A DNA stretch of 64,000 bases from Flavobacteriales bacterium (GCA_947444925.1 CANFBW010000007.1:8774-72773), one strand, 5' to 3'. Counted from the stretch's first letter, positions 3,922-56,093 are shown. Made by a program: numbers and translations. The notes: generated by a model not told the origin, from the sequence alone.

Positions 3922-4173
3922 CTAAAGTTCAATCAACGAAAACTCGAAGCTTTCCATGATTTGGTTGGCCAATAATTTTTTGCACGCCGTCTCCACTTTC
4001 GCCTCTGCTTCATTTTTGCTGGTCGCCTCCAATTCTAAAGAGATGTGTTTGCCAATGCGAACATTTCCAATTTCTGACAAGCCTATGTTTTTCATGCTGT
4101 GTCCTACCGCTTTTCCCTGTGGATCAAGCAATGCCTTCAAGGGCATGATGTCAATTTCTGCTTTAAATTTCAT
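3922..4173 (-). CDS. purS: Phosphoribosylformylglycinamidine synthase subunit PurS.
   Basis: 83 aa, MKFKAEIDIMPLKALLDPQGKAVGHSMKNIGL..VRIGKHISLELEA. This is the typical PurS length and motif set. Confidence 0.85.
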   Translation of the reverse strand: MKFKAEIDIMPLKALLDPQGKAVGHSMKNIGLSEIGNVRIGKHISLELEATSKNEAEAKVETACKKLLANQIMESFEFSLIEL

Positions 4174-4180
4174 GGTAATA

Positions 4181-4885
4181 TTATTTTTTCACTGTTTTTT
4201 TGTTCGACTGTATGTTTTGCGCAATACTGATTGCGAGGTACAAAAGTATAATAAAAGGCATCGCTTGAATGAAAAAAGCGGAAATTAAAAGTGCACAAGC
4301 AAGCAGAAATATGTATTTTATTTGATTGCCCTGCCAGCCAAATCCTTTAAACTTCAATGCCATCAAAGGAAGTTCAGAGACCATTAAAAAGCAAAAAGCC
4401 ACCACAATAGCAGTCAGCACGAAGGCATTGTTCAAAAAATGAAACTGCAGTGCTCCATCGGCTTCATTGAAAACAGACAACGATGCAAAAAACAGGGCGT
4501 TGGCAGGCGTTGGCAAACCCAGAAAGCCCTGGTTTTGACGCTCATCAATATTGAATTTTGCCAAGCGCAAAGCCGAAAATACAGGAATCATAAAAGCAAT
4601 GTAGGGCAAATACGAAGCGCTGTCCGTGATGTCTTTCAGCATAAAAAAAACCAGCATGCCCGGCACAACGCCAAAGGTCACCATATCGGCCAAGGAATCA
4701 AGCTGCTTGCCGAGGCCAGAACTAACCTTCAGCATGCGCGCAGCAAAACCATCAAAAAAATCGAATACTGCTGCAGCCATCATCAACCAAAAAGAAGTGC
4801 TAAAATCCAGCGCAAAGGCACTAACAATGGCCATGCAACCACAAATTAAATTGCACAGCGTTAATATATTGGGTAAATTGAACAC
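4181..4885 (-). CDS. pssA: CDP-diacylglycerol--serine O-phosphatidyltransferase (CDP-alcohol phosphatidyltransferase family).
   Basis: It has the multi-TM N-terminus IPNILTLCNLICG and the CDP-OH phosphotransferase motif DFFDGFAARMLKVSSGLGKQLDSLADMVTFGVVP. The longest ORF reaches 4993, but that would abut the divergent gene starting at 4992. The GTG at 4885 gives ~234 aa, the usual size, so the start is uncertain. Confidence 0.7.
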   Translation of the reverse strand: MFNLPNILTLCNLICGCMAIVSAFALDFSTSFWLMMAAAVFDFFDGFAARMLKVSSGLGKQLDSLADMVTFGVVPGMLVFFMLKDITDSASYLPYIAFMIPVFSALRLAKFNIDERQNQGFLGLPTPANALFFASLSVFNEADGALQFHFLNNAFVLTAIVVAFCFLMVSELPLMALKFKGFGWQGNQIKYIFLLACALLISAFFIQAMPFIILLYLAISIAQNIQSNKKTVKK

Positions 4886-4991
4886 GATTACGCGATTTAT
4901 ATAGTGTTTATGCTCACTCCGCAAAATGTTGAGTGAGCAAATTAAAGAAAATATATTTACTTTTGGCCCGTTTGACTGCTTAAAATTACAC

Positions 4992-6071
4992 ATGACGATC
5001 TATCGACTTCACATACTACTCGCACTATTTTTTGCGGCATCCTTCAAATTGGGGACGGCACAATCGGTTCGAAAATACAGCAACGAATTTTTAAACATTG
5101 GCGCAGGCGCAAGCGCCCTTGGAATGTCAAATGCCAACATTGCCTTGGTAAAAGATGCTACTGCGGGCTATTGGAATCCGGCTGGATTGACCCGACTTGA
5201 AAATAATTTAGAAGTGGCGGGGATGCATGCAGAATATTTTGCCAGCGCATCAAAATACGAATATGCAGCGGCAGCTTTCAAAATTGACGAAGTATCTACA
5301 GGCAGCATTAGTTACCTGCGTTATGGCACTGATAACATACCCAATACCACTGATTTGATCAGCAATGGAGTTATTGACTACGACAGAATAACTTCCTTCT
5401 CAGCAGCTGACAACGCATTTTTGTTTTCGTATGCACGCCAACTAGGAATAGAAGGCTTGAGCATGGGTGGAAGTGCAAAAGTGATTTACCGTCAAGTGGG
5501 TGATTTTGCCTCGGCTTGGGGCTTCGGTCTTGACTTTGGTGCACAGTACAAAAAAGACAATTGGCATTTCGCCGCTGTGGCAAGAGACGTCACGTCAACT
5601 TTCAGTGCTTGGAGTTTTAATCTTGATCAGTTCAAAGAAGTATTTGCACAAACAGGCAATGCACTGCCGAGCAACAGCGTTGAAATGGCCTTACCACGAT
5701 TGATTCTAGCTACAGGCTACCAATTCACCATCCAAAAAGATTTTGGTGTATATCCCGAAATCGATTTGGATCTCACTTTTGACGGCAAAAGAAACACCCT
5801 TGTGTCATCAACCTTTACCAGTATTGATCCACATGTGGGCTTGTTGATGAGCTACAAAAACTTTTTGTTCTTGCGCACAGGCTTGGGCAACTTTCAGCAC
5901 GAAAGTGATTTCAGCGGAAAAAAAGTCACTACTTTTCAACCCAACATCGGCGCAGGTTTTATGTACAAGAAATTTTACTTTGACTACGCGCTCACCAATT
6001 TGGGAGATCAGTCTTCAGCAGCCTATTCCAACGTATTTTCGGTAAGATTCGGCATCAACAAAAGAAATTAA
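4992..6071 (+). CDS. T9SS outer-membrane protein of the PorV/PorQ family (FadL-like beta-barrel).
   Basis: There is a signal peptide MTIYRLHILLALFFAASFKLGTAQS. The motif YSNEFLNIGAGASALGMSNANIAL..AGYWNPAGL resembles the PorV/PorQ N-terminal signature. The gene lies immediately upstream of the PorU-like gene. Confidence 0.5.
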   Translation: MTIYRLHILLALFFAASFKLGTAQSVRKYSNEFLNIGAGASALGMSNANIALVKDATAGYWNPAGLTRLENNLEVAGMHAEYFASASKYEYAAAAFKIDEVSTGSISYLRYGTDNIPNTTDLISNGVIDYDRITSFSAADNAFLFSYARQLGIEGLSMGGSAKVIYRQVGDFASAWGFGLDFGAQYKKDNWHFAAVARDVTSTFSAWSFNLDQFKEVFAQTGNALPSNSVEMALPRLILATGYQFTIQKDFGVYPEIDLDLTFDGKRNTLVSSTFTSIDPHVGLLMSYKNFLFLRTGLGNFQHESDFSGKKVTTFQPNIGAGFMYKKFYFDYALTNLGDQSSAAYSNVFSVRFGINKRN

Positions 6072-6080
6072 ATCACTACA

Positions 6081-9000
6081 ATGAAATTGCGCTTTTTATA
6101 TCTTCTATTTTCCTTTCTAACGTTGAGTGTTTCTGCACAACTGGGCAACAACACATGGATCAACTATTCTCAAAGCTATTTCAAGTTTCCTGTTGCGAAC
6201 ACAGGGATGCACAAAATTGGCTACCAAGCATTGGCTGATGCCGGTATCAACATGGCGAGTTTAAACCCCGACAACTTGCAAATTTTTGGGCGCGGTGAAG
6301 AACAGTATCTGCACATTGAAGGTGGCGATGATGGCACCTTTGATCCACTGGATTATATCTTGCTATATGCCGAAAAAAACGACGGTTATTTTGATGCGCA
6401 GATGTATAAAGATCCTGGTACGAATTCCAATCCGTATTACAGCCTTATCAACGACACTTCGTACTTTTTTGTAACCACCAACACCTCGATCAACAACCGC
6501 AGGATTGAACAAGACAACGATGTGAACTTTGGCGCATACACCGCGGCGCCCTATTTTAATTGCGAACAAGTAATATCGCTCAGCAACCAATACGGCGCTG
6601 GTCTTACTAGTATTATTGACACCCATCTTCCATTCTATATGCCAGGGGAAGGATGGATGGGACCAACTATTTTTATGGGGGGCATTCAATCACACACCAT
6701 TGCTACCCCGTCATATTACGTTCCAGGCGGAAGCGGTACGGTGGAGGCTACAATCATGGGACTCACCAATTCATTCATCTACAAAGACCACCATTTAGAA
6801 GTCTCGTTCAACGGCAAATTGAAAACCGACACCTTTTACGAAGGACACAATTTTTTGAAATTGAATTACACCTTTCCTGCAGCCGAGTGGGCCAGTTCAT
6901 CAGTACTTAAATTTGAGAGCAATTCAAGCGACACAACAAATACTGCCGACCGCAGTGCCGTGGGTTATGTAAAAATGAAATATCCGCGCACTTTTGACTT
7001 AGGCAATGCTACCAGCCAATACCTGGAGGTGCTGAACGGAACAGGCAAGGCCTTTCTCTCCATGTCCAACTTCAACAACCAAAACAGCACAGCGTGGCTC
7101 TTTGACATCAGCAACCACAAAAGAACCATCGTCAGCAAAGTGGGAGCCGTGTTTAAAACACTGGTACCGAACAGCCTTGCGCCAACAAAAAAATGCTTGT
7201 TGACCACGGAAGCCAACTTCATTAATGTAGCACAACTTGAACCGGCCATTTATGGTGTAAGCTCATTTACAGATTACAAAACTTTGTCGCAAAGCAATGG
7301 CGGATACGACTACTTCATCTTAACAGTAAAAGAATTCAAAGCTGAAGCTGAACTTTACAAAAATTACCGCAACAGTGCTGGCTATAAAGCGGTAGTCATT
7401 GACATGGAAGAACTTTACATGCAATACGCCGACGGCATTAGAAAACACCCTATGTCGATTCGCAATTTTGCAAGGGATATCATTAAAAACTGGGGCACCA
7501 CGCCACAGTACTTTTTCCTTATTGGAAAGTCGATTCAACCCGGCACACCCGATTCAAAAACGGAAAGTAATACTGTACTCAATAGCTCACGCCGCAACGC
7601 CATCAACTACGCAAACAACAAAATCCCCACATTTGGCCACCCCGGATCTGACGTATTTTTAACAGCGCAAATCAGCGATTCTTCTCTTTTCGATCCAGAC
7701 ATCGCCATCGGTCGCTTATCGGCTGTCAAAGCAAGCTCCATCACTGATTATTTAAATAAGGTTCAAGAATTCGAAAACAACCAACAAGATTATTGGATGA
7801 AACGTGTTTTGCACTTTGGCGGTGGAACAGAAGAAAGCCAAGGCGCTACATTCGCTGCCTATCTTAACGGATACAAAAACATCATACAAGACACCTGCTT
7901 TGGTGGAACTGTAAATACTTACTTAAAAAACACAACGAATCCCTTACAATTAAACGTATCTGACTCCATCCGCACAAATATCAATGACGGCTGTTCTTTA
8001 ATGACCTTTTTTGGACATGCCTACGGCGAAGGTTTCGACCAAAACATTGATGCGCCTGACAGCTACACAAATCAAGGGAAATATCCGTTAATCATAGCCA
8101 ACTCATGCTTAATTGGAAACATACATTTACCGTCCTTCAGCAGTGGCAGCGAAACCTGGGTCCTCCCACCAAACAGGGGCTCTATTGGCTTTTTAGCTTC
8201 GGTTTCTTTGGGAATTCCGAGTCCACTCAATGAATATTCGAAAGCATTTTACACCAATTTGGGTCAAAAAAATTACGGAAAAGGTTTGGGTAAAATTCAA
8301 CAAGCCGCCATTCGCAGCGTGCAAAAACCACAAGGCATTTTATTGACCGACGACGACTTAGTGCAAGATGTTTGTATGATGATGACCTTGCATTGTGATC
8401 CAGCCATCGTGCTCAATGCACATGCAAAACCTGATTATACGCTTTACGGCACAAAAGGTAAAACACAGCCTATGGTGACCGTAAATCCGGTGGAAGTAAC
8501 CTCGGAATTAAACACTTTCACCATTACCATGGACATCGCCAATCTCGGCAGAGCTGTCACTGATTCCATACAAATACGAATCATTCGATCCTTCTCTACT
8601 AATGCTCCAGATACAGCGTATCTCAAGCGAATACTCAGTCCGAAATTCAAATCCACCGTGCAATTTACCCTGCCAGTAGAACTTATCAATGGCGTTGGAC
8701 TCAATCATTTTAAAATATCCGTCGACAGCGAAAATGCCATCGACGAGCTCGATGAAGACAACAACATTTATGAATTTGACCTCACCATTCGCTCAAGTGG
8801 TATTGTGCCGGTGTATCCTTACAAATACGCCATTGTGCCAAAAAAATCAATCGTACTTAAAGCAAATACGGTAGATCCTTTTGCGGGAGAAAGAAAGTAC
8901 ATTTTTCAAATTGACACCAACAAAAATTTCTCGTCGGCTTCGCCAATGTTTTATGAAGCCGCAATTACCAAAAGCGGAGGTGTGGTAGTGTGGGATCCTG

Positions 9001-41161: not shown

Positions 41162-41232
41162 TAGTCCCACCAGGACTCGAACCTAGACATACACAACCAA
41201 AATGTGCAGTGCTACCATTACACCATGGGACT
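41162..41232 (-). tRNA. tRNA-Gln (anticodon UUG).
   Basis: The reverse complement is AGTCCCATGGTGTAATGGTAGCACTGCACATTTTGGTTGTGTATGTCTAGGTTCGAGTCCTGGTGGGACTA. The acceptor stem is AGTCCCA/TGGGACT. The D-arm is GTGT-AATGGTA-GCAC. The anticodon stem-loop is GCACA-TTTTGGT-TGTGT with anticodon TTG. The T-loop is GGTTCGAGTCC. CCA is not encoded. Confidence 0.85.
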
Positions 41233-45491: not shown

Positions 45492-45677
45492 CACCGTTCC
45501 TACTTATTTCTGTCTCCTTCTCTAAAAAAATGCCGCATTGCCCCTTGTGCTACATTTTGTATATTTGTTTGTAATTGTTCGCCACCGTGCCGCTAGGTTT
45601 AAAATAAATCGGTGAATCATACGGGCCATATCAGGAATACAAACACTAGCAATGCGCAACAAGTACTCTCGAGTAAG

Positions 45678-45715
45678 TTTGTCCTCCTGAGGTACTCCGA
45701 AGGATCTATCGCCCC
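45678..45715. repeat. Short repeat copy A of the MITE-like family around the MNT pseudogene.
   Basis: TTGTCCTCCTGAGGTACTCCGAAGGATCTATCGCCCC. Its core is inverted at 46000-46021 with 1 mismatch. It is repeated directly at 46066-46130 with a 37 bp internal insertion. Confidence 0.6.
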
Positions 45716-45757: not shown

Positions 45758-46286
45758 ATGCTGTTAAATAAGGAGAAAATATTTCGCACAATACAAGCGC
45801 ATGAAGCATCCATCAAAATGTTTGGAGTGAAGAATCTTGCGGTGTTTGGTTCCTTTGTGCGCAACGAACAAAACGAAAATTCTGACATTGATTTCTTTGT
45901 TGAATTTGAAGACGGCAAAAAAAACCACGACAATTACATCGACCTAAGCCCCCCTAAGACCACCGCAATTTCGCCAGACTTGTGACAGAAGTGGCGCTAG
46001 ATCCTTCGGAGTACGTCAGGAAGACAATCATTCTCGAAAAACCTATATGGAAAATCGTTCGCATTTGTCCTCCTGAGATTTGAGATTAAGAGGAGAAACG
46101 AAGTTTCGGTCTTTGAAGGATCTATCGCCCTAAACATAAATCTACTGGTACGATTCCGGATAATTATGTTTCTTTTTAGAAGATCTTTTCAAAAGAAAAA
46201 TTGATTTGGTGACCCCTCCATCCATGAGTCCATACATCGGCCCATAAATCATTAAAGAACTGGAGTATGTCGCACTATCCGCTTGA
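45758..46286 (+). pseudogene. MNT-type (minimal nucleotidyltransferase, HepT/MNT-like) antitoxin-family gene disrupted by a repeat insertion and an in-frame stop.
   Basis: The N-terminal part VKNLAVFGSFVRNEQNENSDIDFFVEFEDGKK..YIDL has the NTase GS motif and acidic residues. It diverges at ~45945. The C-terminal part resumes in another frame at 46164 (LEDLFKRKIDLVTPPSMSPYIGP). It is followed by a TAA stop at 46245 and then IIKELEYVALSA. The intervening ~220 bp carries repeat copies B and C. Confidence 0.55.
46000..46130. repeat. Inverted (B) and direct (C) copies of the short repeat, lying inside the disrupted MNT gene.
   Basis: B is GATCCTTCGGAGTACGTCAGGA at 46000-46021. C runs 46066-46130 as TTGTCCTCCTGAG..(37 bp insert)..GAAGGATCTATCGCCC. 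Confidence 0.55.
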
Positions 46287-47487: not shown

Positions 47488-47747
47488 TATTTATACGGAT
47501 AAATAAACGAATACGCGCACCAAAACCACCCATCTGCTCATGGTGTAGTGACAACAAATAAGAGCACAAATGAATAAAATAAGCGCTAGCTTTGAACTGT
47601 ATCACATATGCCTGTATCAAATCGACGAGCTAGATATATAAATAAAACAAAATAGACATATATGGCGGCTATGAGCAATTGCTCATAGCCGCTCGTTAAG
47701 GGCAAGCTTAAGTCAAAATTGCTCAATGCTTAAACAATTAAAAGAAA

Positions 47748-49463
47748 ATGAAAAAACAAAATTTACTAATATCAGCAATTGCAATCTTCGGATTTGCAAC
47801 AATTACCAAGGCTCAAAATGTTCGAGCTTGGGGTACTTATTACACAGGTACTGGGCAAGTATGGCCGAACGGAGAAGAAAGAGGGAATTCCTGTATTACC
47901 GATGCCGCAGGCAATGTTTACATGGTTGGGTTCACAAGTTCAAATTCAGATATAGCCACAGCTGGAGCACATCAAACTGTTTATGCTGGGGGCCCTATCA
48001 GCTCTGGCACGGGAGGTTATGATGCGTTTTTAGTAAAGTTTAATTCAAGTGGCGTAAGACAATGGGCTACTTATTACGGAGGGAGCGAAAATGATAAAGG
48101 AATTTCTTGCGCTCTTGACGCTTCAGGCAATGTTTACATGATTGGCTCTACAAGTTCTACATCAGGTATAGCCACAGCAGGAGCCCATGAAGCTACAGTT
48201 AATGATGGCTTTTTAGTAAAGTTTAATTCAAGTGGAGTAAGGCAATGGGGCACTTATTTCGAAGGCAATGGTAATGCCTGCACTACAGATGCTTCCGGTA
48301 ATATATACATAGTTGGATTAACAAATTCCACTTCAGGTATAGCCACCACAGCAGGGGCGCATCAAACTGTGATGTCGGGCAGTGATGACGCTTTTTTAGT
48401 AAAGTTTAATTCAAGCGGAGTAAAGCAATGGGGTACTTATTTTGGAGGTGCTTCTTCTAGTGCTTCCGGAATGGAAAAGGGATTATCCTGTGCCACAGAT
48501 GCTTTAGGTAATGTCTATATGGTTGGGCAAACACCTTCCACTTCCGGCATAGCCACAGCAGGGGCTCATCAAACTATTTATGGCGGAAGTTCTTGTGATG
48601 CTTTTTTAGTAAAGTTTAATTCAAGTGGAGTAAGGCAATGGGGCACATATTATGGCGGCCCAGATGAAGATATAGGATATTCGTGCGCTACCGACGCATC
48701 TGGCAATGTATATTTAGCTGGTGATACACAACAAGGATCCTTTACTTCATCAGGCATGACAACAATAGGATCGCATCAAAGTGCTTATGGTGGTGGTTAT
48801 AGTGATGGATTCTTAGTAAAGTTTGATTATAACGGTCAAAGGCAATGGGCTACATATTATGGCGGCCCAAATGAAGATATAGGATATTCGTGCGCTACCG
48901 ATGCATCAGGTAATGTTTACATGTCGGGGGGCACACAATCTACTAGCGGTATAGCTACATCAGGAGCACATCAAACTACATTTGATGACGCGTTTTTAGT
49001 TTGTTTCAACTCAAGTGGAGTAAGACAAAGCGGCACCTATTACGGTGGCATCAAAAATGTCTGCACTACCGATGCTTCAGGCAATGTATACATGACGGGG
49101 TATACACAATCTAATTCGGGAATAGCCACAACAGGAGCGCATCAAACCGTTAATGGAAATAGTGGTTACAGCGATGCTTTCTTAGTAAAATTTAATGGTA
49201 TAAGTTTGGGTATTAATGAAACTATAAATGATAAATTATTTTCAATTTACCCTAACCCTGCCCAAAGTATAGTCAATGTAAAAGCTGATGCCAAACTTAT
49301 TGGCACTGTTTACACTATTTATGACAACACAGGTAAAGTAGTTTTATCAGGAACAATAAATGCTGAAAACACAAGCGTTGAGTTGGGAAATTTATCGGTA
49401 GGTATTTATTTGTTCAGTGCAGGAGAAAATGTGCAACAGACATTTAAAGTGATTAAGGAATAA
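47748..49463 (+). CDS. SBBP-type (beta-propeller) repeat protein with a T9SS type-A CTD.
   Basis: There is a signal peptide. About eight repeats follow the pattern DAFLVKFNSSGVRQWGTYYGG..D.G.S.A.DASGNVYM.G.T.STSGIAT.GAHQT. The C-terminal CTD is FSIYPNPAQSIVNVKA...GIYLFSAGENVQQTFKVIKE. The DNA-level period is ~180-210 bp. Confidence 0.7.
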   Translation: MKKQNLLISAIAIFGFATITKAQNVRAWGTYYTGTGQVWPNGEERGNSCITDAAGNVYMVGFTSSNSDIATAGAHQTVYAGGPISSGTGGYDAFLVKFNSSGVRQWATYYGGSENDKGISCALDASGNVYMIGSTSSTSGIATAGAHEATVNDGFLVKFNSSGVRQWGTYFEGNGNACTTDASGNIYIVGLTNSTSGIATTAGAHQTVMSGSDDAFLVKFNSSGVKQWGTYFGGASSSASGMEKGLSCATDALGNVYMVGQTPSTSGIATAGAHQTIYGGSSCDAFLVKFNSSGVRQWGTYYGGPDEDIGYSCATDASGNVYLAGDTQQGSFTSSGMTTIGSHQSAYGGGYSDGFLVKFDYNGQRQWATYYGGPNEDIGYSCATDASGNVYMSGGTQSTSGIATSGAHQTTFDDAFLVCFNSSGVRQSGTYYGGIKNVCTTDASGNVYMTGYTQSNSGIATTGAHQTVNGNSGYSDAFLVKFNGISLGINETINDKLFSIYPNPAQSIVNVKADAKLIGTVYTIYDNTGKVVLSGTINAENTSVELGNLSVGIYLFSAGENVQQTFKVIKE

Positions 49464-49717
49464 GCCAGCCCTTAACAGCGTGCAAGCGCCATAACCCTGC
49501 CGCAGGCGCAACACAGGGTTACGATCGCCTGCACGCAAAACGTTATGGGCAAGTTTAAAAAACGACACATGGACAGAGTATGGAAAATTTTAACTTTGTC
49601 ACTTCTTGACAATCATTAACGACTGAAGAACAAATAATAAAAAGTGGAGATCAGCAACCATATTAAAAACGGGGCGACACCGAAAAGCCAAACGAGTAGG
49701 AAATAAAAATATAAAAA

Positions 49718-50545
49718 ATGAAATATTTACTCATCATTCTATTTACCGCATTTATAACACATCATTCTAATGCACAAATTACATTAGAGCAATCTTATGC
49801 CGATGGCCAAGGATTATCAATAATTAAATTAGAAAATTCTGGTCAAAAGTATTTACAATACGATTTAACTAATCAAATTGTGAAACTGTATAATTTAGAC
49901 CATTCGATTTTCAAGACTATTTCGCTACCCACACTTCAACCTTCAACTCAATTGTTAAGTATTAGTTACATTTCTGAAAATTTATTTAACTCTGACAACT
50001 TAATTGAAATATTATGTTTTAAAAAAAATTGGTTGCCGACAACCGTAACCACTAGTGGAGAGGTTAAAGTAATTAATGAAAATGGCAATGTGATTTTTTC
50101 AGGGGACTCTATGGTAGTGGTTGAACAAAGATCAACCACATATTATGGCTATGATGACAAATGTCCTTTTATCTATAATACTACAAATGGAACCAAGATG
50201 ATTTTGTATTCTTATAAATCATCAGACAAAGAATTTAAAGTATATTCTTTACCAGGTACCCTTGTGGCGTCTATCAAGCAAATCAATGACATTAATTTAC
50301 AACAATTACCTTTCCCTAATCCGACAAATAACAATATTACCATTGCTTATCAACTTCCTCTTAACAAACAGGGCAAGTTAATAATCAATGACCTGTCAGG
50401 GAAAATAATTTTAGAATATAGCATAGACAATACCTTTGACAATGTAATTATTGAAACAAATAGCTTAGCTTCCGGTAATTATTTTTTTTCTATCTATTCT
50501 GACAATCAAAAATTATCAACCGGCAAATTTGTTGTAACAAAATAA
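49718..50545 (+). CDS. Secreted protein with a T9SS type-A CTD.
   Basis: 275 aa. The signal peptide is MKYLLIILFTAFITHHSNAQ. The C-terminus LPFPNPTNNNITIAYQL...GNYFFSIYSDNQKLSTGKFVVTK is CTD-like. Confidence 0.5.
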   Translation: MKYLLIILFTAFITHHSNAQITLEQSYADGQGLSIIKLENSGQKYLQYDLTNQIVKLYNLDHSIFKTISLPTLQPSTQLLSISYISENLFNSDNLIEILCFKKNWLPTTVTTSGEVKVINENGNVIFSGDSMVVVEQRSTTYYGYDDKCPFIYNTTNGTKMILYSYKSSDKEFKVYSLPGTLVASIKQINDINLQQLPFPNPTNNNITIAYQLPLNKQGKLIINDLSGKIILEYSIDNTFDNVIIETNSLASGNYFFSIYSDNQKLSTGKFVVTK

Positions 50546-50607
50546 AGCTATGTTAGAAATAAAGAACCTGCCCATAACATTGGGTTTAAAGAAATTGGGG
50601 GTTCAGT

Positions 50608-50721
50608 GGTTAATTGAACATTCTACCTCGCATCAACATTTGTGGTAGCTTGACAGTTTAGTGCTCCGAAATCGCCAACTTCTTAAACCCACAAACCGTT
50701 ACCAGTAATTGTATGAAGACC
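50608..50721. repeat. Intergenic repeat A, copy 1 (~113 bp).
   Basis: GGTTAATTGAACATTCTACCTCGCATCAAC.TTTGTGGT...TTGACAGTTT.GTGCTCCGAAATC... is ~85-90% identical to the copy at 50910-51022. Confidence 0.7.
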
Positions 50722-50722
50722 C

Positions 50723-50862
50723 CCGCCTCGCTTAGCGAAAACAACGCTAAGCGATCTTAGCACTCCCAAAGCCTTCGGCTTACCATTTAATTACAAGAGG
50801 CGAAGCCTCTAAAATAGCGATCCCGCTTAGCGAAAAGAAAATGCACGCTAAGCGGGGCAAAG
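50723..50862. repeat. Structured intergenic repeat R, copy 1 (~140 bp, MITE/REP-like).
   Basis: It is >90% identical to the copies at 51985-52124 and 53358-53498. It contains four copies of the near-palindromic 9-mer CGCTTAGCG/CGCTAAGCG forming two strong hairpins. It also has small GCCTTCGGC and GAGGC-GAA-GCCTC hairpins. The ends form an imperfect terminal inverted repeat. Confidence 0.8.
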
Positions 50863-50909
50863 TAAACTTTTTGTTGGCGCTTGCGATAACGTTCAATGGC
50901 GGGTGACGT

Positions 50910-51022
50910 GGTTAATTGAACATTCTACCTCGCATCAACTTTTGTGGTGTATTGACAGTTTTGTGCTCCGAAATCCGCTTCTTCGCCAAGCCCGAAACCG
51001 TTAGCGGTAATTGTAGCAGACC
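50910..51022. repeat. Intergenic repeat A, copy 2.
   Basis: See copy 1 at 50608-50721. It lies ~70 bp upstream of the 51094 gene. Confidence 0.7.
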
Positions 51023-51093
51023 TCAATGAAAGCATAAAAAGTCAAACATTCGTTCATTTAAAATGTTAATCTTGTAATAAAAAAAAGACAGTA

Positions 51094-51912
51094 ATGATCA
51101 CTCAAATTGAAAAAATCAAAAAGACAATTGAACCCTTAAGACAAGAGATCATTCATCATAAAGTTTATTCAGCCATTAAAGACATAGACGACTTAAAAGT
51201 ATTTATGCAATTTCACGTATACGCTGTTTGGGACTTCATGTCTTTATTGAAAACTCTACAAAGCAACTTGACTTGCACATCTGTTCCGTGGTTTCCTAAA
51301 GGAACTGCAGACACAAGATATCTTATTAATGAAATTGTTGCAGGTGAAGAGTCAGATATAGACCTAAATGGCATAAGGAAAAGTCATTTTGAATTGTACT
51401 TAGATGCTATGAAACAATGCGGGGCAAACACTTCTAAAATTGAAGTTTTTACAGATGTATTAAAAAATACTGGCGACTTTGATTCTGCTTATTTGGCTTC
51501 AGAAACTCCAAAGGAAGCAAAAGATTTTGTTGACTTTACTTTCAAAGTCATTGAAAGCGGTAAAGACTATTTACAATCAGCTATTTTTACTTTTGGACGT
51601 GAAGACCTCATTCCAGGTATGTTTATCTCGATAATAAATGAAATGCACAAGAACTTTCCTGACGACATTTCTTTTTTTAAATACTATATCGAAAGACACA
51701 TTGAAGTTGATGGCGACCACCATAGCCATCTTGCGATACAAATGACAGCCAATCTGTGTAAAGACAACGAACAATATTGGAAGGAAGCAGAAGAAGCAGT
51801 TATAAATTCATTAAAACAAAGAATTGAATTGTGGGATGGTGTATACAAACAGTTGACTGAAAGAACAACTACTGCTAACAGCAGCTACAAGAAATTGGCA
51901 GATCACTTGTAA
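51094..51912 (+). CDS. DUF3050-family protein (heme-oxygenase-like / TenA-PqqC-like helical fold).
   Basis: 272 aa. I.PLRQEIIHHKVYSAIKDIDDLKVFMQFHVYAVWDFMSLLKTLQ is the pattern I recall for DUF3050. There is no signal peptide. Confidence 0.5.
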   Translation: MITQIEKIKKTIEPLRQEIIHHKVYSAIKDIDDLKVFMQFHVYAVWDFMSLLKTLQSNLTCTSVPWFPKGTADTRYLINEIVAGEESDIDLNGIRKSHFELYLDAMKQCGANTSKIEVFTDVLKNTGDFDSAYLASETPKEAKDFVDFTFKVIESGKDYLQSAIFTFGREDLIPGMFISIINEMHKNFPDDISFFKYYIERHIEVDGDHHSHLAIQMTANLCKDNEQYWKEAEEAVINSLKQRIELWDGVYKQLTERTTTANSSYKKLADHL

Positions 51913-51984
51913 AATATGACTTCATGCTTCGTCAAGTGCAGTGCTAAAATCCCGCCTGAACGCTACGCTGCAAAACGCTATTCA

Positions 51985-52124
51985 CCGCCTCGCTTAGCGT
52001 TCTTTTCGCTAAGCGATCTTACTTCTCCCAAAGCCTTCGGCTTACCATTTAATTACAAGAGGCGAAGCCTCTAAAATAGCGATCCCGCTTAGCGAAAAGA
52101 AAATGCACGCAAGCGGGGCAAAGG
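51985..52124. repeat. Structured intergenic repeat R, copy 2.
   Basis: It begins 70 bp after the stop of the 51094-51912 gene. It has the same four-9-mer hairpin architecture. Confidence 0.8.
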
Positions 52125-52234
52125 TGCGACAAAAAAATTACGCTTGGATAGTTTTTGACTAACTTTACACTGACAAAAAAAGTGAAGACCAGCGTCCACT
52201 TTGAAAAACAGAAACAATTAACAAAAAAATCAAA

Positions 52235-53317
52235 ATGAAAAATCGATTACGAAAAATAATTATTTTATCATCGATAATGATGATAAGTACATGTGTTTTA
52301 TTTTTGGTTAGTTGTAATAAAGAACCGCAGCAAAATGGACCCAATGGTTCTCCTTTTCCACAGTTATCCGCAAATGAAATGTTAGGTATTTGGGAACGGG
52401 CTGATGGGCAAGCAACAACCTATCTAAAAATAGAAGGAACAGTTGCAACAACTTGTAATAACGGAACGGAAACAGTAGGAACTTTTGATTCTTCAGTACC
52501 CTCTGTAACATTTGTTGTAAATGGGACAACGCATGAATTCAAAATGAGAATGGAACAAGGACTTCTAATATTAGACGTTCCACCTACTAGTACTAATCCT
52601 AATCATGTGGAAACTGAATACCATAAATACGACACCTGGCCTTGCGGTGGCAGTAATGGTGGGTTTATGGCAACCGATATAAATGGTAATTGGGAACACA
52701 TACCGTCAGGTACTATTGTAGAAATCAGTAGTGCAAGTGGTAATGGAATATATAAAGCTGGTTCTGCTCCGTCAGGAGCAATAGGGGGCAATAGCTTAAC
52801 CCAAGTAACATATCAAAGTGGTGGTAATTGGGAGGCTTTAAACCACATATATTATTCAACAGGATGGTCAACTTCCGGCACTTTAGTCAACCTTGTTATG
52901 GCAAGTGATAAGAAAACTTTTAACATTGGAACTGCAGTTTATACAAAGCAAATTCCAATTTCATATAAAACATATAATATCGCTGTTGGGTATAATCCTA
53001 ATGACCCATACATGTCTGATATCAATGTAAATGATCTTCTAATTGGTGGAGTAAGTTGCGGATTTACTTTACTAAATTCAGGAGTTACTTCACCTGATTG
53101 TTCAAGCAGTAATTCTTTTTACGTTATTAGTGAATCTCAACTAAAATACGATGGCCGTTTTGATGTAGTTGTTAAATATACCATTGGAACTGATCCCTAT
53201 GTGTGGGAAAACGGTTCCAGAATTGATCCTGCGGAGCTTACAAGTACATGTAATACATACAAATTTATTCGAGGAAATCCTTCTTTCGGTAAAGTAGTTT
53301 ACTTAGTAAAAATGTAG
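52235..53317 (+). CDS. Lipoprotein of unknown function.
   Basis: 360 aa. The signal peptide plus lipobox is LFLVSC-NKEP. It is rich in G/N/T/S and predicted to be a beta-rich extracytoplasmic protein. I recognise no family. Confidence 0.4.
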   Translation: MKNRLRKIIILSSIMMISTCVLFLVSCNKEPQQNGPNGSPFPQLSANEMLGIWERADGQATTYLKIEGTVATTCNNGTETVGTFDSSVPSVTFVVNGTTHEFKMRMEQGLLILDVPPTSTNPNHVETEYHKYDTWPCGGSNGGFMATDINGNWEHIPSGTIVEISSASGNGIYKAGSAPSGAIGGNSLTQVTYQSGGNWEALNHIYYSTGWSTSGTLVNLVMASDKKTFNIGTAVYTKQIPISYKTYNIAVGYNPNDPYMSDINVNDLLIGGVSCGFTLLNSGVTSPDCSSSNSFYVISESQLKYDGRFDVVVKYTIGTDPYVWENGSRIDPAELTSTCNTYKFIRGNPSFGKVVYLVKM

Positions 53318-53357
53318 CTTACGAGAATAGTTTATTCGTTTAAATTGATCAAAACCA

Positions 53358-53498
53358 CCGCCTCGCTTAGCGTTCTTTTCGCTAAGCGATCTTAGCACTC
53401 CCAAAGCCTTCGGCTTACCTTTTAATTACAAGAGGCGAAGCCTCTAAAATAGCGATCCCGCTTAGCGAAAAGAAAATGCACGCTAAGCGGGGCAAAGG
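53358..53498. repeat. Structured intergenic repeat R, copy 3.
   Basis: It begins ~40 bp after the stop of the 52235-53317 gene. It abuts the 3' end of the minus-strand gene 53510-54148. Confidence 0.8.
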
Positions 53499-53509: not shown

Positions 53510-54148
53510 TTACAAATGGTCAGGAACACTGGCTGCATTTGCGGGCGTAGGATCGTTTTCTTTTATTCTTTTGCGACACAAACGTTCTATCTCCACAACA
53601 TTGTCAACTCCCGAAAGTTCAATAGAATCAGCAACAAATCTATCTGGTCCGTTTTTTTTGCTCACCATTTTACCTGTTCTCAGCTCAAAAGTGATGTCGC
53701 CCTTTGCAAAGTTTGCCGCAATATTTCCCGTGAATTGCTCCCAATCGTAAGCATTTAAAGCGCCGCTTCTGTATCTTAAAAAGCGCGTGGGAGTTCCTAC
53801 AAAATAGCCTCCCTCTCGTACTGCATTTCTAATAGCAAAAATCATCAACCCAATACCTACTAAAACAAAAACTCCTATAATGACACCGGGCAATAGCATG
53901 GGCGCCAAATTTTCTGCCGAACCAACAACTTCTTCGCCATTACTTGTGAAATGTACTTCTTCACCCCGCAATAGCGGTCCAAAAAAAACAACCACAAAAA
54001 TACTGATGAATCCACACCAGAAAATAGCAAAGGCAAACATGATTATTGTCGTTCCTCTGGCTTGAAATCTTTTTGCTTTTGCGGCAAATTCAATTTTTTC
54101 TGAACCTATCACAGAAATAAGCTCTTGGGGCAAATCGGCAGAGTACAT
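53510..54148 (-). CDS. Two-TM membrane protein of unknown function.
   Basis: 212 aa. The TM helices are IIMFAFAIFWCGFISIFVVVFFG and LLPGVIIGVFVLVGIGLMIFAI, followed by a ~110 aa C-terminal soluble domain. Confidence 0.4.
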   Translation of the reverse strand: MYSADLPQELISVIGSEKIEFAAKAKRFQARGTTIIMFAFAIFWCGFISIFVVVFFGPLLRGEEVHFTSNGEEVVGSAENLAPMLLPGVIIGVFVLVGIGLMIFAIRNAVREGGYFVGTPTRFLRYRSGALNAYDWEQFTGNIAANFAKGDITFELRTGKMVSKKNGPDRFVADSIELSGVDNVVEIERLCRKRIKENDPTPANAASVPDHL

Positions 54149-55936: not shown

Positions 55937-56093
55937 CAGTGGCGCAAAAAGCGCACCTCAAAGCATATTGTGTTTTACAGGAAATTTGATGCCTCTACAA
56001 TTGAAATAATAAGGATATTACACGACCGTATTGATCTACAAAATAAATTGAAAGATTAAAATCAACATACTCTCACTTAAACCTCCCAAAAAC

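Follow-up and report, generated by a model that had tools for sequence, protein, structure and literature searches.

The repeat R, present three times in a 64,000-nucleotide stretch of a Flavobacteriales genome (hereafter the window), is probably a REPIN-type element spread by a REP-associated tyrosine transposase (RAYT), and its copies lie inside a strain-variable, CALIN-like array of attC cassettes. A REP-like mobile element was among the alternatives named in a preliminary description of this locus, and it is the one favored here: each R pairs two REP-like hairpin units, and a RAYT gene is flanked by relatives of R. Both kinds of element are already known; here they occur together in an organism in which neither has been described in detail.

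Comparison of the window with itself by blastn returned exactly three copies of R, all on the plus strand and 91-97% identical (Table 1), at the positions first reported and in agreement with the >90% identity given there (91.6-96.5%). All three fall within 3 kb, with none in the remaining 61 kb, and are extragenic and clustered, each a sharply bounded discrete unit with unrelated flanks. The distances from the preceding plus-strand stop codon are 178, 73, and 41 nt, inside the 40-190 bp originally noted. R2 starts 1 nt past the degenerate R′ box of attC-4, the site of the DUF3050 cassette, and R3 lies between convergent genes (ORF 52235-53317 on the plus strand and ORF 53510-54148 on the minus strand). 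In the window there are 11 occurrences of the 9-mer CGCTWAGCG, where 0.18 would be expected by chance, and every one of them is within R. Four such near-palindromic 9-mers had been assigned to every copy, which is correct for R1 and R3, but R2 has three exact ones and a fourth with a 1-nt deletion (right arm of P4, CGC-AAGCG; left arm at 52086-52094). The long hairpin CGCTTAGCG-N7-CGCTAAGCG attributed to each copy was recovered, three times in the window with none expected.

Table 1. Features of the cassette array and of the R copies in the window (coordinates count from the first nucleotide of the window; P1-P4, hairpins of R).
Feature	Position	Strand	Details
Array entry junction	47663..47703	+	palindrome 47663-47692, then GTTAAGGGC at 47695-47703; first cassette starts G/TT
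Cassette 1	47696..49542	+	SBBP beta-propeller protein with T9SS sorting domain, ORF 47748-49463
attC-1 (SBBP/T9SS cassette)	49468..49550	+	R″ GCCCTTAAC 49468-49476; R′ GTTATGGGC 49542-49550
Cassette 2	49543..50698	+	DUF805 RNA motif leader 49639-49706, then T9SS-sorted ORF 49718-50545
attC-2 (Repeat A copy 1)	50570..50705	+	R″ GCCCATAAC 50570-50578; R′ GTTACCAG 50698-50705
Cassette 3	50699..51000	+	ORF-less; R1 makes up nearly half
R1, REPIN-like doublet	50723..50862	+	inside 302-bp ORF-less cassette; P1 50729-50753, P2 50769-50781, P3 50796-50810, P4 50822-50856
attC-3 (Repeat A copy 2)	50883..51007	+	left box GCGATAAC degenerate; R′ GTTAGCGG 51000-51007
Cassette 4	51001..51977	+	DUF3050/HamA_HO-like ORF 51094-51912
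attC-4, degenerate	51872..51983	+	overlaps 3′ end of DUF3050 ORF; R″ CTGCTAAC
R2, REPIN-like doublet	51985..52124	+	P1 51991-52015, loop TTCTTTT
R2-R3 strain-variable module	52125..53357	+	leader and ORF 52235-53317
R3, REPIN-like doublet	53358..53498	+	P1 53364-53388, P2 53404-53416, P3 53431-53445, P4 53457-53491
Example REP-like unit	53364..53388	+	foot CCGCCT 53358-53363, then CGCTTAGCG-TTCTTTT-CGCTAAGCG
Example partner REP-like unit	53459..53489	-	foot TTGCCC, then CGCTTAGCG-TGCATTTTCTTTT-CGCTAAGCG

Each R comprises a pair of REP-like units inverted relative to one another. The units are hairpins of 25-31 nt in which a GCYY foot precedes a 9-bp stem capped by the loop (TGCA)TTTTCTTTT, and a small G+C hairpin follows each of them. 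In every full R, the P1 unit reads on the plus strand and the P4 unit on the minus strand, with foot, stem, and loop alike. The foot varies as GCCT, GCCC, GCTT, or GCTC and is neither GTAG nor CGTC, and within the ~70-nt spacer, two hairpins and the sequence ACTCCCAAAG are conserved. The P1 loop of R1 (AAAACAA) is flipped relative to R2 and R3, and the P4 loop of R3 is AAAAGAAAATGCA. As DNA hairpins, the two example units in Table 1 have energies of -11.3 kcal/mol (53364..53388) and -13.5 kcal/mol (53459..53489), both with z -5.1. The 13-nt loop is invariant across distant genomes. The repeats occur as singlets, doublets, and middle-inverted copies.

As a whole, R is 67% self-complementary, with folding z-scores of -4.9 to -8.0 as RNA and approximately -6 as DNA, and the predicted folds are one long foldback for R2 and R3 and four separate hairpins for R1. 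Covariation across copies, a comparison suggested with the preliminary description, was assessed in an alignment of 11 R copies. The four local hairpins were 92% paired in this alignment, with a few G-U pairs and with both-sided changes in five of nine pairs of P1 and one pair of P3, whereas end-to-end pairing was broken wherever P1 varied (6 of 11 copies unpaired at columns 30-151 and 46-135). Compensatory changes thus support the four local hairpins, and the long foldback between the ends is not conserved. Mutually exclusive folds, as first proposed, are predicted in this lineage (R1 versus R2 and R3). Nor is the terminal inverted repeat conserved in R, local hairpins being conserved instead.

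RAYT genes flanked by R-type units were found in related contigs, and none was found in the 64-kb window itself. In locus L129, a 188-aa ORF between the left half of an R and a full R exceeded the 80-bit cut-off of the NCBIfam model NF047646 for REP-associated tyrosine transposase, with a score of 106.6 bits, and also matched Pfam Y1_Tnp. A RAYT 80% identical to it, P0005, is encoded in L159-L166 and L171-L173, with a full R (88% identical to R3 of the window) at a distance of 66 nt on the upstream side and an inverted half-R close by on the downstream side, and the RAYT of L167 is likewise flanked. R units around the RAYT gene occur in both orientations and include half-copies and middle-inverted copies. 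The enzyme (188 aa) carries the motifs NHVH and YIHSNP, YIHYNP, or YIHNNP, and its gene, in a thyA-folA-gatA-gatB neighborhood, seems to be present once, at a constant place in the chromosome. One metagenome-assembled genome, GCA_046074525.1, contains both the L167 RAYT and dispersed R copies (L036, L099). P0005 was present in 10 samples, 8 of which also contained exact proteins of the window; the composition of its longer contig (L171) fits the window, and tetranucleotide composition of the short RAYT contigs was non-discriminating. This link, made of sample co-occurrence and composition with no single shared contig, suggests that a RAYT may be present in the window's own genome.

The available text of Quentin et al. 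(2018, PMC6006769) describes Bacteroidetes TnpA_REP of subclass 2.6 as flanked by 'atypical secondary structures' with copies elsewhere in the genome. The enzymes described here share with subclass 2.6/RAYT group 5 a length of ~180-190 aa, the NH[LIV]H and YIHxNP motifs, and a Bacteroidota host, an assignment based on motifs and length rather than phylogeny, and the non-canonical GCYY foot of R fits the 'atypical' structures of that subclass. Such structures are reported in that text, which describes neither a doublet of four hairpins nor a connection with variable loci.

Relatives of R were confined to contigs of Flavobacteriales/Bacteroidota type among the matches listed. A scan of the genome collection for the bare hairpin pattern was unspecific, yielding mostly chance palindromes, with true relatives at 5 of 116 listed loci. 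No match to R was obtained by blastn against plasmid and phage collections or by an exact scan of viral contigs, neither R nor A matched an Rfam family at the gathering threshold or at E up to 10, and a literature search with R motif strings retrieved no relevant paper.

Repeat A, left uninterpreted in the preliminary description, is, judged by its boxes and by the strain junctions, an integron-type attC site. Both copies first described are present (50593-50721 and 50895-51022) and their core is >90% identical, but identity over the full 129 nt is 81%, slightly lower than the 85-90% originally given for ~113 bp; they share a conserved central block with TTGACA. Four attC sites, identified by hand rather than with IntegronFinder's model, lie within 2.5 kb as imperfect palindromes of 83-136 nt, 3′ of ORFs and in one orientation. 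The box pairs are CCTTAAC...GTTATGG, CCATAAC...GTTACCA, and GATAAC...GTTAGCG, with the R′ box of the fourth mutated to GCTATTC (TTTATTC in L127); two of the four sites are degenerate, and strains L009 and L127 have intact versions of attC-3. Left boxes are complementary to the beginning of the cassette to which they belong, at 9/9 bases for cassettes 1 and 2 (R″ of attC-1 and attC-2 being exact reverse complements of the starts at 47695 and 49542), at 7/8 for cassette 4 (attC-4 R″ versus the reverse complement of GTTAGCGG), and at 4/8 for the ORF-less cassette 3. The R/L spacer is strongly asymmetric, 1 nt versus 5-6 nt (AAAAC/AAACC). For attC-1 and the L003 and L127 sites, the predicted bottom-strand fold (z -3.3 to -5.4) has its R and L stems separated by an unpaired, one-sided spacer of 4 nt, with single-base bulges in the L stem; the corresponding fold of A1 is not significant (z -0.2), nor are A1 and A2 folded alone (z -1.8 to +0.5). 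No integron integrase or recombinase domain was found in the tested ORFs of the window or in the called genes of sister contigs, and the array is called CALIN-like because the window holds no integrase. Integrons and CALINs are known in Bacteroidota (PMC8618304).

In strains L003, L009, L127, and L157, divergence from the window falls exactly on the attC G/TT junction: L157 homology ends at 49545 (attC-1), L003 joins at attC-1, and L009 has a RelE/ParE-type toxin-antitoxin cassette in place of cassette 3. In L127, R2 and the R2-R3 module are replaced by a LamG/T9SS gene plus an 88-aa ORF. The three genes named in the preliminary description as a T9SS cargo, a DUF3050 protein, and a lipoprotein were borne out by a T9SS C-terminal domain (49718-50545), a DUF3050 match (51094-51912), and a lipoprotein-like N-terminus in ORF 52235-53317, which has no Pfam match. 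The accessory mini-island envisaged there is real, its genes being cassettes that are strain-variable exactly at G/TT, but it was not built by R.

Copies of R also sit at the borders of strain-variable genes, and strain differences begin or end at R borders between the window and L127 (at 53357), L131 and L132, and L104 and L144. The insert in L138 is flanked by an 18-nt direct repeat, CGCTAAGCGGGGCAAAGG, and R3 and a mini-R keep their orientation around an acyltransferase gene that is reversed there. Truncated left termini of R stop at ...GCCTCGCTT in two unrelated loci, middle-inverted copies occur in L129 and L036, and other genomes have R with no attC sites nearby. Target-site duplications or direct repeats were found neither at the borders of R1-R3 nor at those of relatives. 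The L104 copy was considered as an insertion into a small ORF and rejected, as homology to the intact homolog (P0001, L144) stops at R, indicating replacement. Because no clean pair of filled and empty sites was found among the compared strain loci, the mobility of R as a unit is inferred; so is its movement by the RAYT.

The location of R behind genes raises the question of whether it is a structured RNA in the 3′ UTR of the upstream gene, serving as a stabilizer, terminator, processing site, or 3′-derived sRNA. A same-strand stop codon precedes all three window copies, and most relatives, by 0-180 nt, the covarying hairpins contain a few G-U pairs, and folding z-scores are strong, yet this role, raised in the preliminary description, appears quite unlikely: Rfam gave no match even at E up to 10, P4 is followed by no conserved U-tract or consistent T-run, terminator-like matches in the region are near chance (10 versus 5.7 ± 2.8), R3 and the mini-R hold their orientation beside the reversed L138 gene, and the RAYT gene is bordered by R copies on both strands, including halves and middle-inverted ones. 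A host-side RNA effect may exist on top of mobility, as is known for REPs. It is very unlikely that R is a second, non-canonical attC-like site for an integrase or other site-specific recombinase, with the gene-plus-R unit as the cassette. The order R-gene-R-gene-R with constant R orientation, the strain differences at R borders (L127, L138, L131/L132, and L104/L144), and the left-terminus truncations at a common sequence are consistent with such a site, but R lacks the AAC/GTT boxes required by IntI, occurs away from attC sites in other genomes, and has loops of 7, 11, and 13 nt, which are incompatible with a double-stranded tyrosine recombinase core site; moreover, no recombinase adjoins any R locus examined, whereas a RAYT does. 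Two narrower versions were rejected: that R is a variant attC (AAC/GTT boxes are absent, and GTTAGGC in the left hairpin of L104 has the wrong polarity) and that hairpin 1 is a double-stranded 9-7-9 tyrosine recombinase core site (loop length varies).

A classical MITE, that is, an internally deleted IS of a DDE transposase that recognizes terminal inverted repeats on double-stranded DNA, would match the ~140 bp length, the intergenic location, and the ~30-nt inverted repeat formed by the ends in this lineage. The absence of target-site duplications at the three copies and relatives makes this highly improbable, as does the compensation of left-arm changes within their own hairpin rather than in the right end; no DDE element with R ends was seen, and the associated gene encodes a Y1 HUH enzyme. 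For Repeat A, the alternative is another REP-like or regulatory repeat, for example one bearing a promoter in its TTGACA segment, to which the conserved central block, the two degenerate sites of four, and the lack of an integrase in the window could point. Such an origin is rather improbable, given that the left box matches its own cassette start as expected for integron cassettes, that four independent strain junctions fall at G/TT, that the sites are 3′ of ORFs in a single orientation, that the bottom strand of the better-preserved sites folds well, although A1 and A2 folded alone are not significant, and that promoter-like matches are at chance level. Sigma-70-type hexamers are not known as the Bacteroidota promoter type. 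R was also considered as an invertible promoter switch and rejected; its middle segment showed no Bacteroidota-type promoter motif, and an inverted middle is found in the L129 and L036 copies but in no strain of this locus.

Several known systems resemble the elements described here. REP/REPIN-RAYT systems (E. coli BIMEs/REPtron and Pseudomonas REPINs) share with R short G+C-rich hairpins with a conserved 5′ foot, an inverted doublet able to fold as a long hairpin, coexisting singlets and doublets, an extragenic position often just 3′ of genes, a lack of target duplications, and a Y1 HUH transposase gene flanked by its own units, in the case of R in related contigs. Their foot, however, is GTAG or CGTC rather than GCYY, canonical REPINs lack the ~70-nt spacer with its two small hairpins and conserved block, and E. 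coli and Pseudomonas REPINs are dispersed in hundreds, whereas the few R copies observed to date group together in strain-variable gene islets. IS200/IS605 and PATE derivatives likewise combine a Y1 HUH enzyme, subterminal single-stranded hairpins, and an absence of target duplication, but IS200/IS605 end hairpins lie on one strand and the element carries its own transposase, while R units are inverted and the transposase gene is apparently single-copy in a constant chromosomal setting. Correia elements (Neisseria) and ERIC/IRU (Enterobacteria) are also intergenic imperfect palindromes of ~100-150 bp that can affect neighboring transcripts; unlike R, they have true terminal inverted repeats and no associated Y1 transposase, and Correia elements have TA duplications. 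Repeat A and its cassettes agree with integron attC/CALIN arrays in left boxes of the form ..YTAAC and right boxes of the form GTTA.., complementarity of the left box to the cassette's own start, cassettes swapped at G/TT, a toxin-antitoxin cassette in one strain, and no integrase nearby, and differ in the strongly asymmetric spacer, the decay of two sites, the interleaved REPIN-like elements, and at least one cassette with its own 5′ leader motif (DUF805 RNA).

On the REPIN reading, R would be non-autonomous, and the genome would most likely encode, outside the window, its cognate enzyme, a REP-associated tyrosine (HUH/Y1) transposase of Bacteroidota type. The RAYT would bind the hairpins of single-stranded R and cleave and religate the adjoining DNA, so that copies could spread without target duplications, and R would have colonized a strain-variable, integron-type array recombining at attC sites. 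R may contribute to gene turnover at this locus. A further and unlikely proposal is that a RAYT acting on two same-strand R copies excises and inserts the DNA between them, an integrase-independent second cassette system that would share the integron hotspot. Candidate R-gene-R modules under that proposal are gene 3, the L138 acyltransferase, and the small ORFs that surround the RAYTs of L159 and L167, and both cassette systems would then act on single-stranded hairpins.

The foot, stem, invariant 13-nt loop, and companion small hairpin described here are, to our knowledge, the first base-level anatomy of the 'atypical' REP-like repeats found with RAYTs of the Bacteroidota class. For annotation, the repeats account for the breaking of metagenome assemblies of this organism at this locus, and R should not be labeled an RNA gene or a terminator. 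The locus places REP-like repeats inside a decaying integron-type array in a freshwater Flavobacteriales population whose strains differ by whole genes, and RAYT-driven movement of R-gene-R units, if true, would be a new route of gene-cassette exchange.

The 64-kb window contains three copies of the ~140-bp Repeat R and no more, at the places given in the preliminary description, and the >90% identity claimed for the copies is borne out by measured values of 91.6-96.5%. Its borders are sharp, the flanks of the three window copies are unrelated, and the placement 3′ of three plus-strand genes holds, with R1 starting 178 nt past the stop codon of an ORF for a T9SS-sorted protein, R2 73 nt past that of the DUF3050 ORF, and R3 41 nt past that of an ORF whose 360-aa product has no Pfam match. 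The motif CGCTWAGCG occurs 11 times in the window, compared with 0.18 expected by chance, every time within R; a twelfth is missing from R2 because of a 1-nt deletion, so the four 9-mers per copy first described are complete in R1 and R3 and disrupted at the fourth position in R2. The 9-N7-9 hairpin was found three times in the window versus none expected. The alternative folds suggested earlier were recovered in prediction, R2 and R3 folding as a single long foldback that pairs P1 with P4 and R1 as four separate hairpins (P1-P4).

Positions and sequence features in the window (window coordinates)
Feature	Position	Strand	Description
R1	50723-50862	+	window self-comparison
R2	51985-52124	+	window self-comparison
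R3	53358-53498	+	window self-comparison
P1	in each window R		CGCTTAGCG - 7-nt loop - CGCTAAGCG
P2	in each window R		AAGCC-TTC-GGCTT, ACTCCCAAAG just before
P3	in each window R		AGAGGC-GAA-GCCTCT
P4	in each window R		CCCGCTTAGCG-AAAAGAAAATGCA-CGCTAAGCGGG
attC-1	49468-49550, left box at 49468		GCCCTTAAC, exact reverse complement of cassette start GTTAAGGGC at 47695
attC-2 (Repeat A1)	50570-50705, left box at 50570; Repeat A1 at 50593-50721		GCCCATAAC, exact reverse complement of GTTATGGGC at 49542
attC-3 (Repeat A2)	50883-51007; Repeat A2 at 50895-51022
attC-4	left box at 51872		CTGCTAAC, 7/8 bases match to GTTAGCGG at 51000
RF03081 (DUF805 RNA motif)	49639-49706	+	full length, 81 bits (gathering score 51); 5′ leader of T9SS-sorted ORF 49718-50545, not a DUF805 gene
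RF03081, weak partial copy	52177-52228	+	first hairpin only, 25 bits, ahead of ORF 52235
SBBP beta-propeller blades	48010-49196		tandem repeats, periods 183-210 nt, inside ORF 47748-49463
GTCCTCCTGAGGTACTCCGAAGGATCTATCGCCC repeat family	45677-45715; 45993-46027 (-); 46063-46130
ATTTGAGATTAAGAGGAGAAACGAAGTTTCGGTCTTTG mini-insert	46075-46112		~40 nt, nested in hairpin of the 46-kb repeat
tRNA gene	41162-41232	-	Rfam RF00005, 59.8 bits

A unit scan combining loop and stem detects in each R one unit on the plus strand (P1) and one on the minus strand (P4), both with the same layout of a GCYY foot, a 9-bp stem, and then the loop (TGCA)TTTTCTTTT. R as a whole amounts to a diverged palindrome with 67% self-complementarity, in which P3 mirrors P2 in decayed form. 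With one unit on each strand, R is a doublet of inverted REP-like hairpins. The P1 loop reads AAAACAA in R1 (50738-50744) versus TTCTTTT in R2 (52000-52006) and R3 (53373-53379), the loop having inverted between arms that are perfect palindromes, with one base substituted in addition.

Species-representative genomes, scanned with a hairpin pattern, and metagenomes, scanned for exact matches, yielded relatives of R which, among the matches listed, lie only in contigs of Flavobacteriales/Bacteroidota type, including four MAGs (two labelled Chryseobacterium and two Flavobacteriales), metagenome contigs of freshwater and marine origin, and L127, which is ~95% identical to the window and represents a sister strain. 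When 11 copies were aligned, the local hairpins P1-P4 were 92% paired, and both-side changes were seen at 5/9 P1 pairs (CGCTTAGCG/CGCTAAGCG versus CGCATAGGC/GCCTATGCG and CGCCGAGGG/CCCTCGGCG) and at one P3 pair (GAGGC/GCCTC versus GTGGC/GCCAC), a pattern showing hairpins maintained by compensatory change. The foldback pairing is lost where P1 varies, with two columns unpaired in 6/11 sequences; therefore, what has been conserved is a group of hairpins formed on a single strand and not the terminal inverted repeat originally proposed. P4 with its 13-nt loop is invariant across the aligned copies, for which the search patterns partly selected, and relatives from a genome scan on stems only (L019, L036, L099, L104, and L105) carry the identical 13-nt loop wherever P4 is present. 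Single-hairpin forms exist, as do copies with an inverted middle segment (P2-P3 between the end hairpins in L129, 2215-2356, and L036, 2828-2900), a product that recombination between the mutually inverted inner arms would be expected to produce. Hairpins of R can themselves be interrupted, since mini-inserts of the ATTTGAGATTAAGAGGAGAAACGAAGTTTCGGTCTTTG type and its variants also lie inside P1 or P4 at L159 2150-2190 and L167 2858-2900 and 5560-5600; these may represent a tiny hairpin-targeting element.

Relatives of R flank a gene for a REP-associated tyrosine (Y1 HUH) transposase, or RAYT. On the metagenome contig L129, a 188-aa ORF is bracketed by the left half of R (P1+P2), 43 nt upstream, and by a full R just downstream; the ORF matches Pfam Y1_Tnp and covers the whole NCBIfam profile NF047646 (REP-associated tyrosine transposase), scoring 106.6 bits where the cut-off is 80. 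Its homologues number 4,614 at E < 1e-10, the named ones being from Bacteroidota and several annotated as RayT. The RAYT P0005, 80% identical to that of L129, sits among the housekeeping genes thyA, folA, gatA, and gatB-aspS, with a full R 66 nt upstream (88% identical to window R3), another R farther upstream, and an inverted P2+P1 half-R directly downstream. A third, P0004 (81% identical), is likewise flanked by R in MAG GCA_046074525.1, which also carries the dispersed copies L036 and L099. REP/REPIN-RAYT systems (a REPIN being an inverted REP doublet) are defined by a transposase gene bracketed by the repeat it presumably mobilizes, with doublets elsewhere in the genome, and RAYT genes bracketed by R units are seen in the R-related contigs. 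P0005 turned up in 10 metagenome samples, 8/10 of which also hold contigs encoding exact window proteins, and the longest P0005 contig read (L171) has a G+C of 0.42-0.445 and a tetranucleotide r of 0.91-0.94, within the range of the window's 8-kb pieces; a RAYT is thus probably present in the window's own genome. TnpA_REP subclass 2.6, as described by Quentin et al. (2018, PMC6006769), is Bacteroidetes-specific, ~179 aa long, and marked by NH[LIV]H and YIH[QN]NP; the R-linked enzymes, compared with it, have 188 aa, NHVH, and YIHSNP/YIHYNP/YIHNNP, and their assignment to the subclass, made from motifs only, is provisional. A second Y1_Tnp gene of 186 aa lies 2 kb from the RAYT on L162 (3275-3835), with no R-type flanking hairpins in the sequence read.

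A mechanism for R can be proposed by analogy with E. coli TnpA_REP and IS200/IS605 TnpA. The RAYT would recognize the hairpin, together with the foot 5′ of it, in single-stranded DNA, cut beside the hairpin through its HUH/Tyr center, and rejoin the ends, so that the doublet is copied or moved. The invariant loop and the foot would serve as recognition elements, and at P1, given its variable stem, shape would count above sequence.

The second repeat, Repeat A, does occur in two copies, at 81% identity over 129 nt and not the 85-90% reported before. Four sites of one design, identified by hand, follow four units, ORF or ORF-less, between 47.7 and 52.0 kb, each reading, in order, ..YTAAC (left box), a single A, an imperfect inverted repeat, AAAAC/AAACC (spacer), and GTTA... 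(right box). A left box complementary to the start of its own cassette is the footprint of integron cassette recombination between G and TT. On these grounds, Repeat A is a predicted attC site and the locus a cassette array. Sister strains confirm cassette recombination: in L003, the T9SS cassette is joined, exactly at GTTATGGGC, to another cassette and attC, L157 departs from the window exactly past AAAACGTTA at 49545, L009 has a RelE/ParE-type toxin-antitoxin cassette in place of the window's R1, and L127 carries another cassette with an intact attC (CCGCTAAC...GTTAGCGG) ahead of the DUF3050 cassette. On the bottom strand, the better-preserved sites are predicted to fold, as DNA, into an R stem and an L stem, the latter with single-base bulges, separated by a spacer of 4 nt on one side only. 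The window ORFs tested and the neighboring genes of sister contigs yielded no recombinase domain, and the array therefore fits a CALIN (an attC cluster without an integron integrase); an integrase may be encoded elsewhere in the same genome. Integrons and CALINs are known from Bacteroidota (PMC8618304, PMC9668308). As the RF03081 motif lies in the leader of a cassette gene, one or more of the cassettes bring a structured leader with them. Across the whole window, GC skew is -0.05 to -0.125 over 1-48 kb and near zero over 48-64 kb, and the array region has the lowest tetranucleotide correlation to the remaining window (0.89).

R copies also border strain-variable DNA. In L127, R2 and ORF 52235-53317 are replaced by a LamG/T9SS gene and an 88-aa ORF, and homology restarts exactly at the left end of R3. 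L138 has an additional acyltransferase gene, oriented the other way and placed between R3 and a mini-R of one hairpin, with the 18-nt CGCTAAGCGGGGCAAAGG repeated at both junctions. Elsewhere in the neighborhood, L136 has a 2.1-kb insert (4050-6260; cf. window 55957-56081) between FAD-binding and CTP-transferase genes, containing degenerate R left halves, an outer-membrane-like ORF, a small antitoxin-like ORF, a tandem 65-nt duplication, and a copy of the GTCCTCCTGAGGTACTCCGAAGGATCTATCGCCC repeat at 84% identity; in the window, the latter family sits in a ~0.8-kb insert with nucleotidyltransferase gene fragments that some sister strains (L153-L155, L158) do not have. L131 and L132 have the same sequence to the right of R and different sequence to the left, homology of L104 to an intact gene ends at R, and small ORFs alternate with R copies around the RAYT. 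Neighbors at such loci are toxin-antitoxin pairs, ORF6N, DUF4143, and unknowns, with no recombinase gene next to R at the variable loci examined. These facts fit alike an accumulation of repeats in dispensable DNA, a role of R as a homology source for recombination, and direct movement by the RAYT of DNA between two R repeats. Two other Flavobacteriales genomes have, beside R copies, diverged ~70-bp duplicates derived from an ilvC-like gene's 3′ end (L099 555-625 and 1548-1616; L019 2880-2960), which looks like repeated integration at a gene end.

The strongest alternative to a REPIN is a 3′ UTR RNA, because R sits past stop codons. R has no U-tract, however, and its Rfam search gave no match at either threshold used; its orientation is unchanged beside a reversed gene, and half-copies and both orientations surround the RAYT gene. 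In addition to being a REPIN, R may still act on its host at the RNA level, something documented for REPs. That R is a second kind of attC is unlikely, as it has no AAC/GTT boxes, varies in loop length, and occurs in other genomes without attC sites. A DDE-type MITE is unlikely because R has no target duplications and compensatory change is local to each hairpin.

The REPIN-like repeat and the attC array are both of known kinds. The novelty lies in the specific R family, in how it is built, and in its occurrence alongside an integron-type array in Flavobacteriales.
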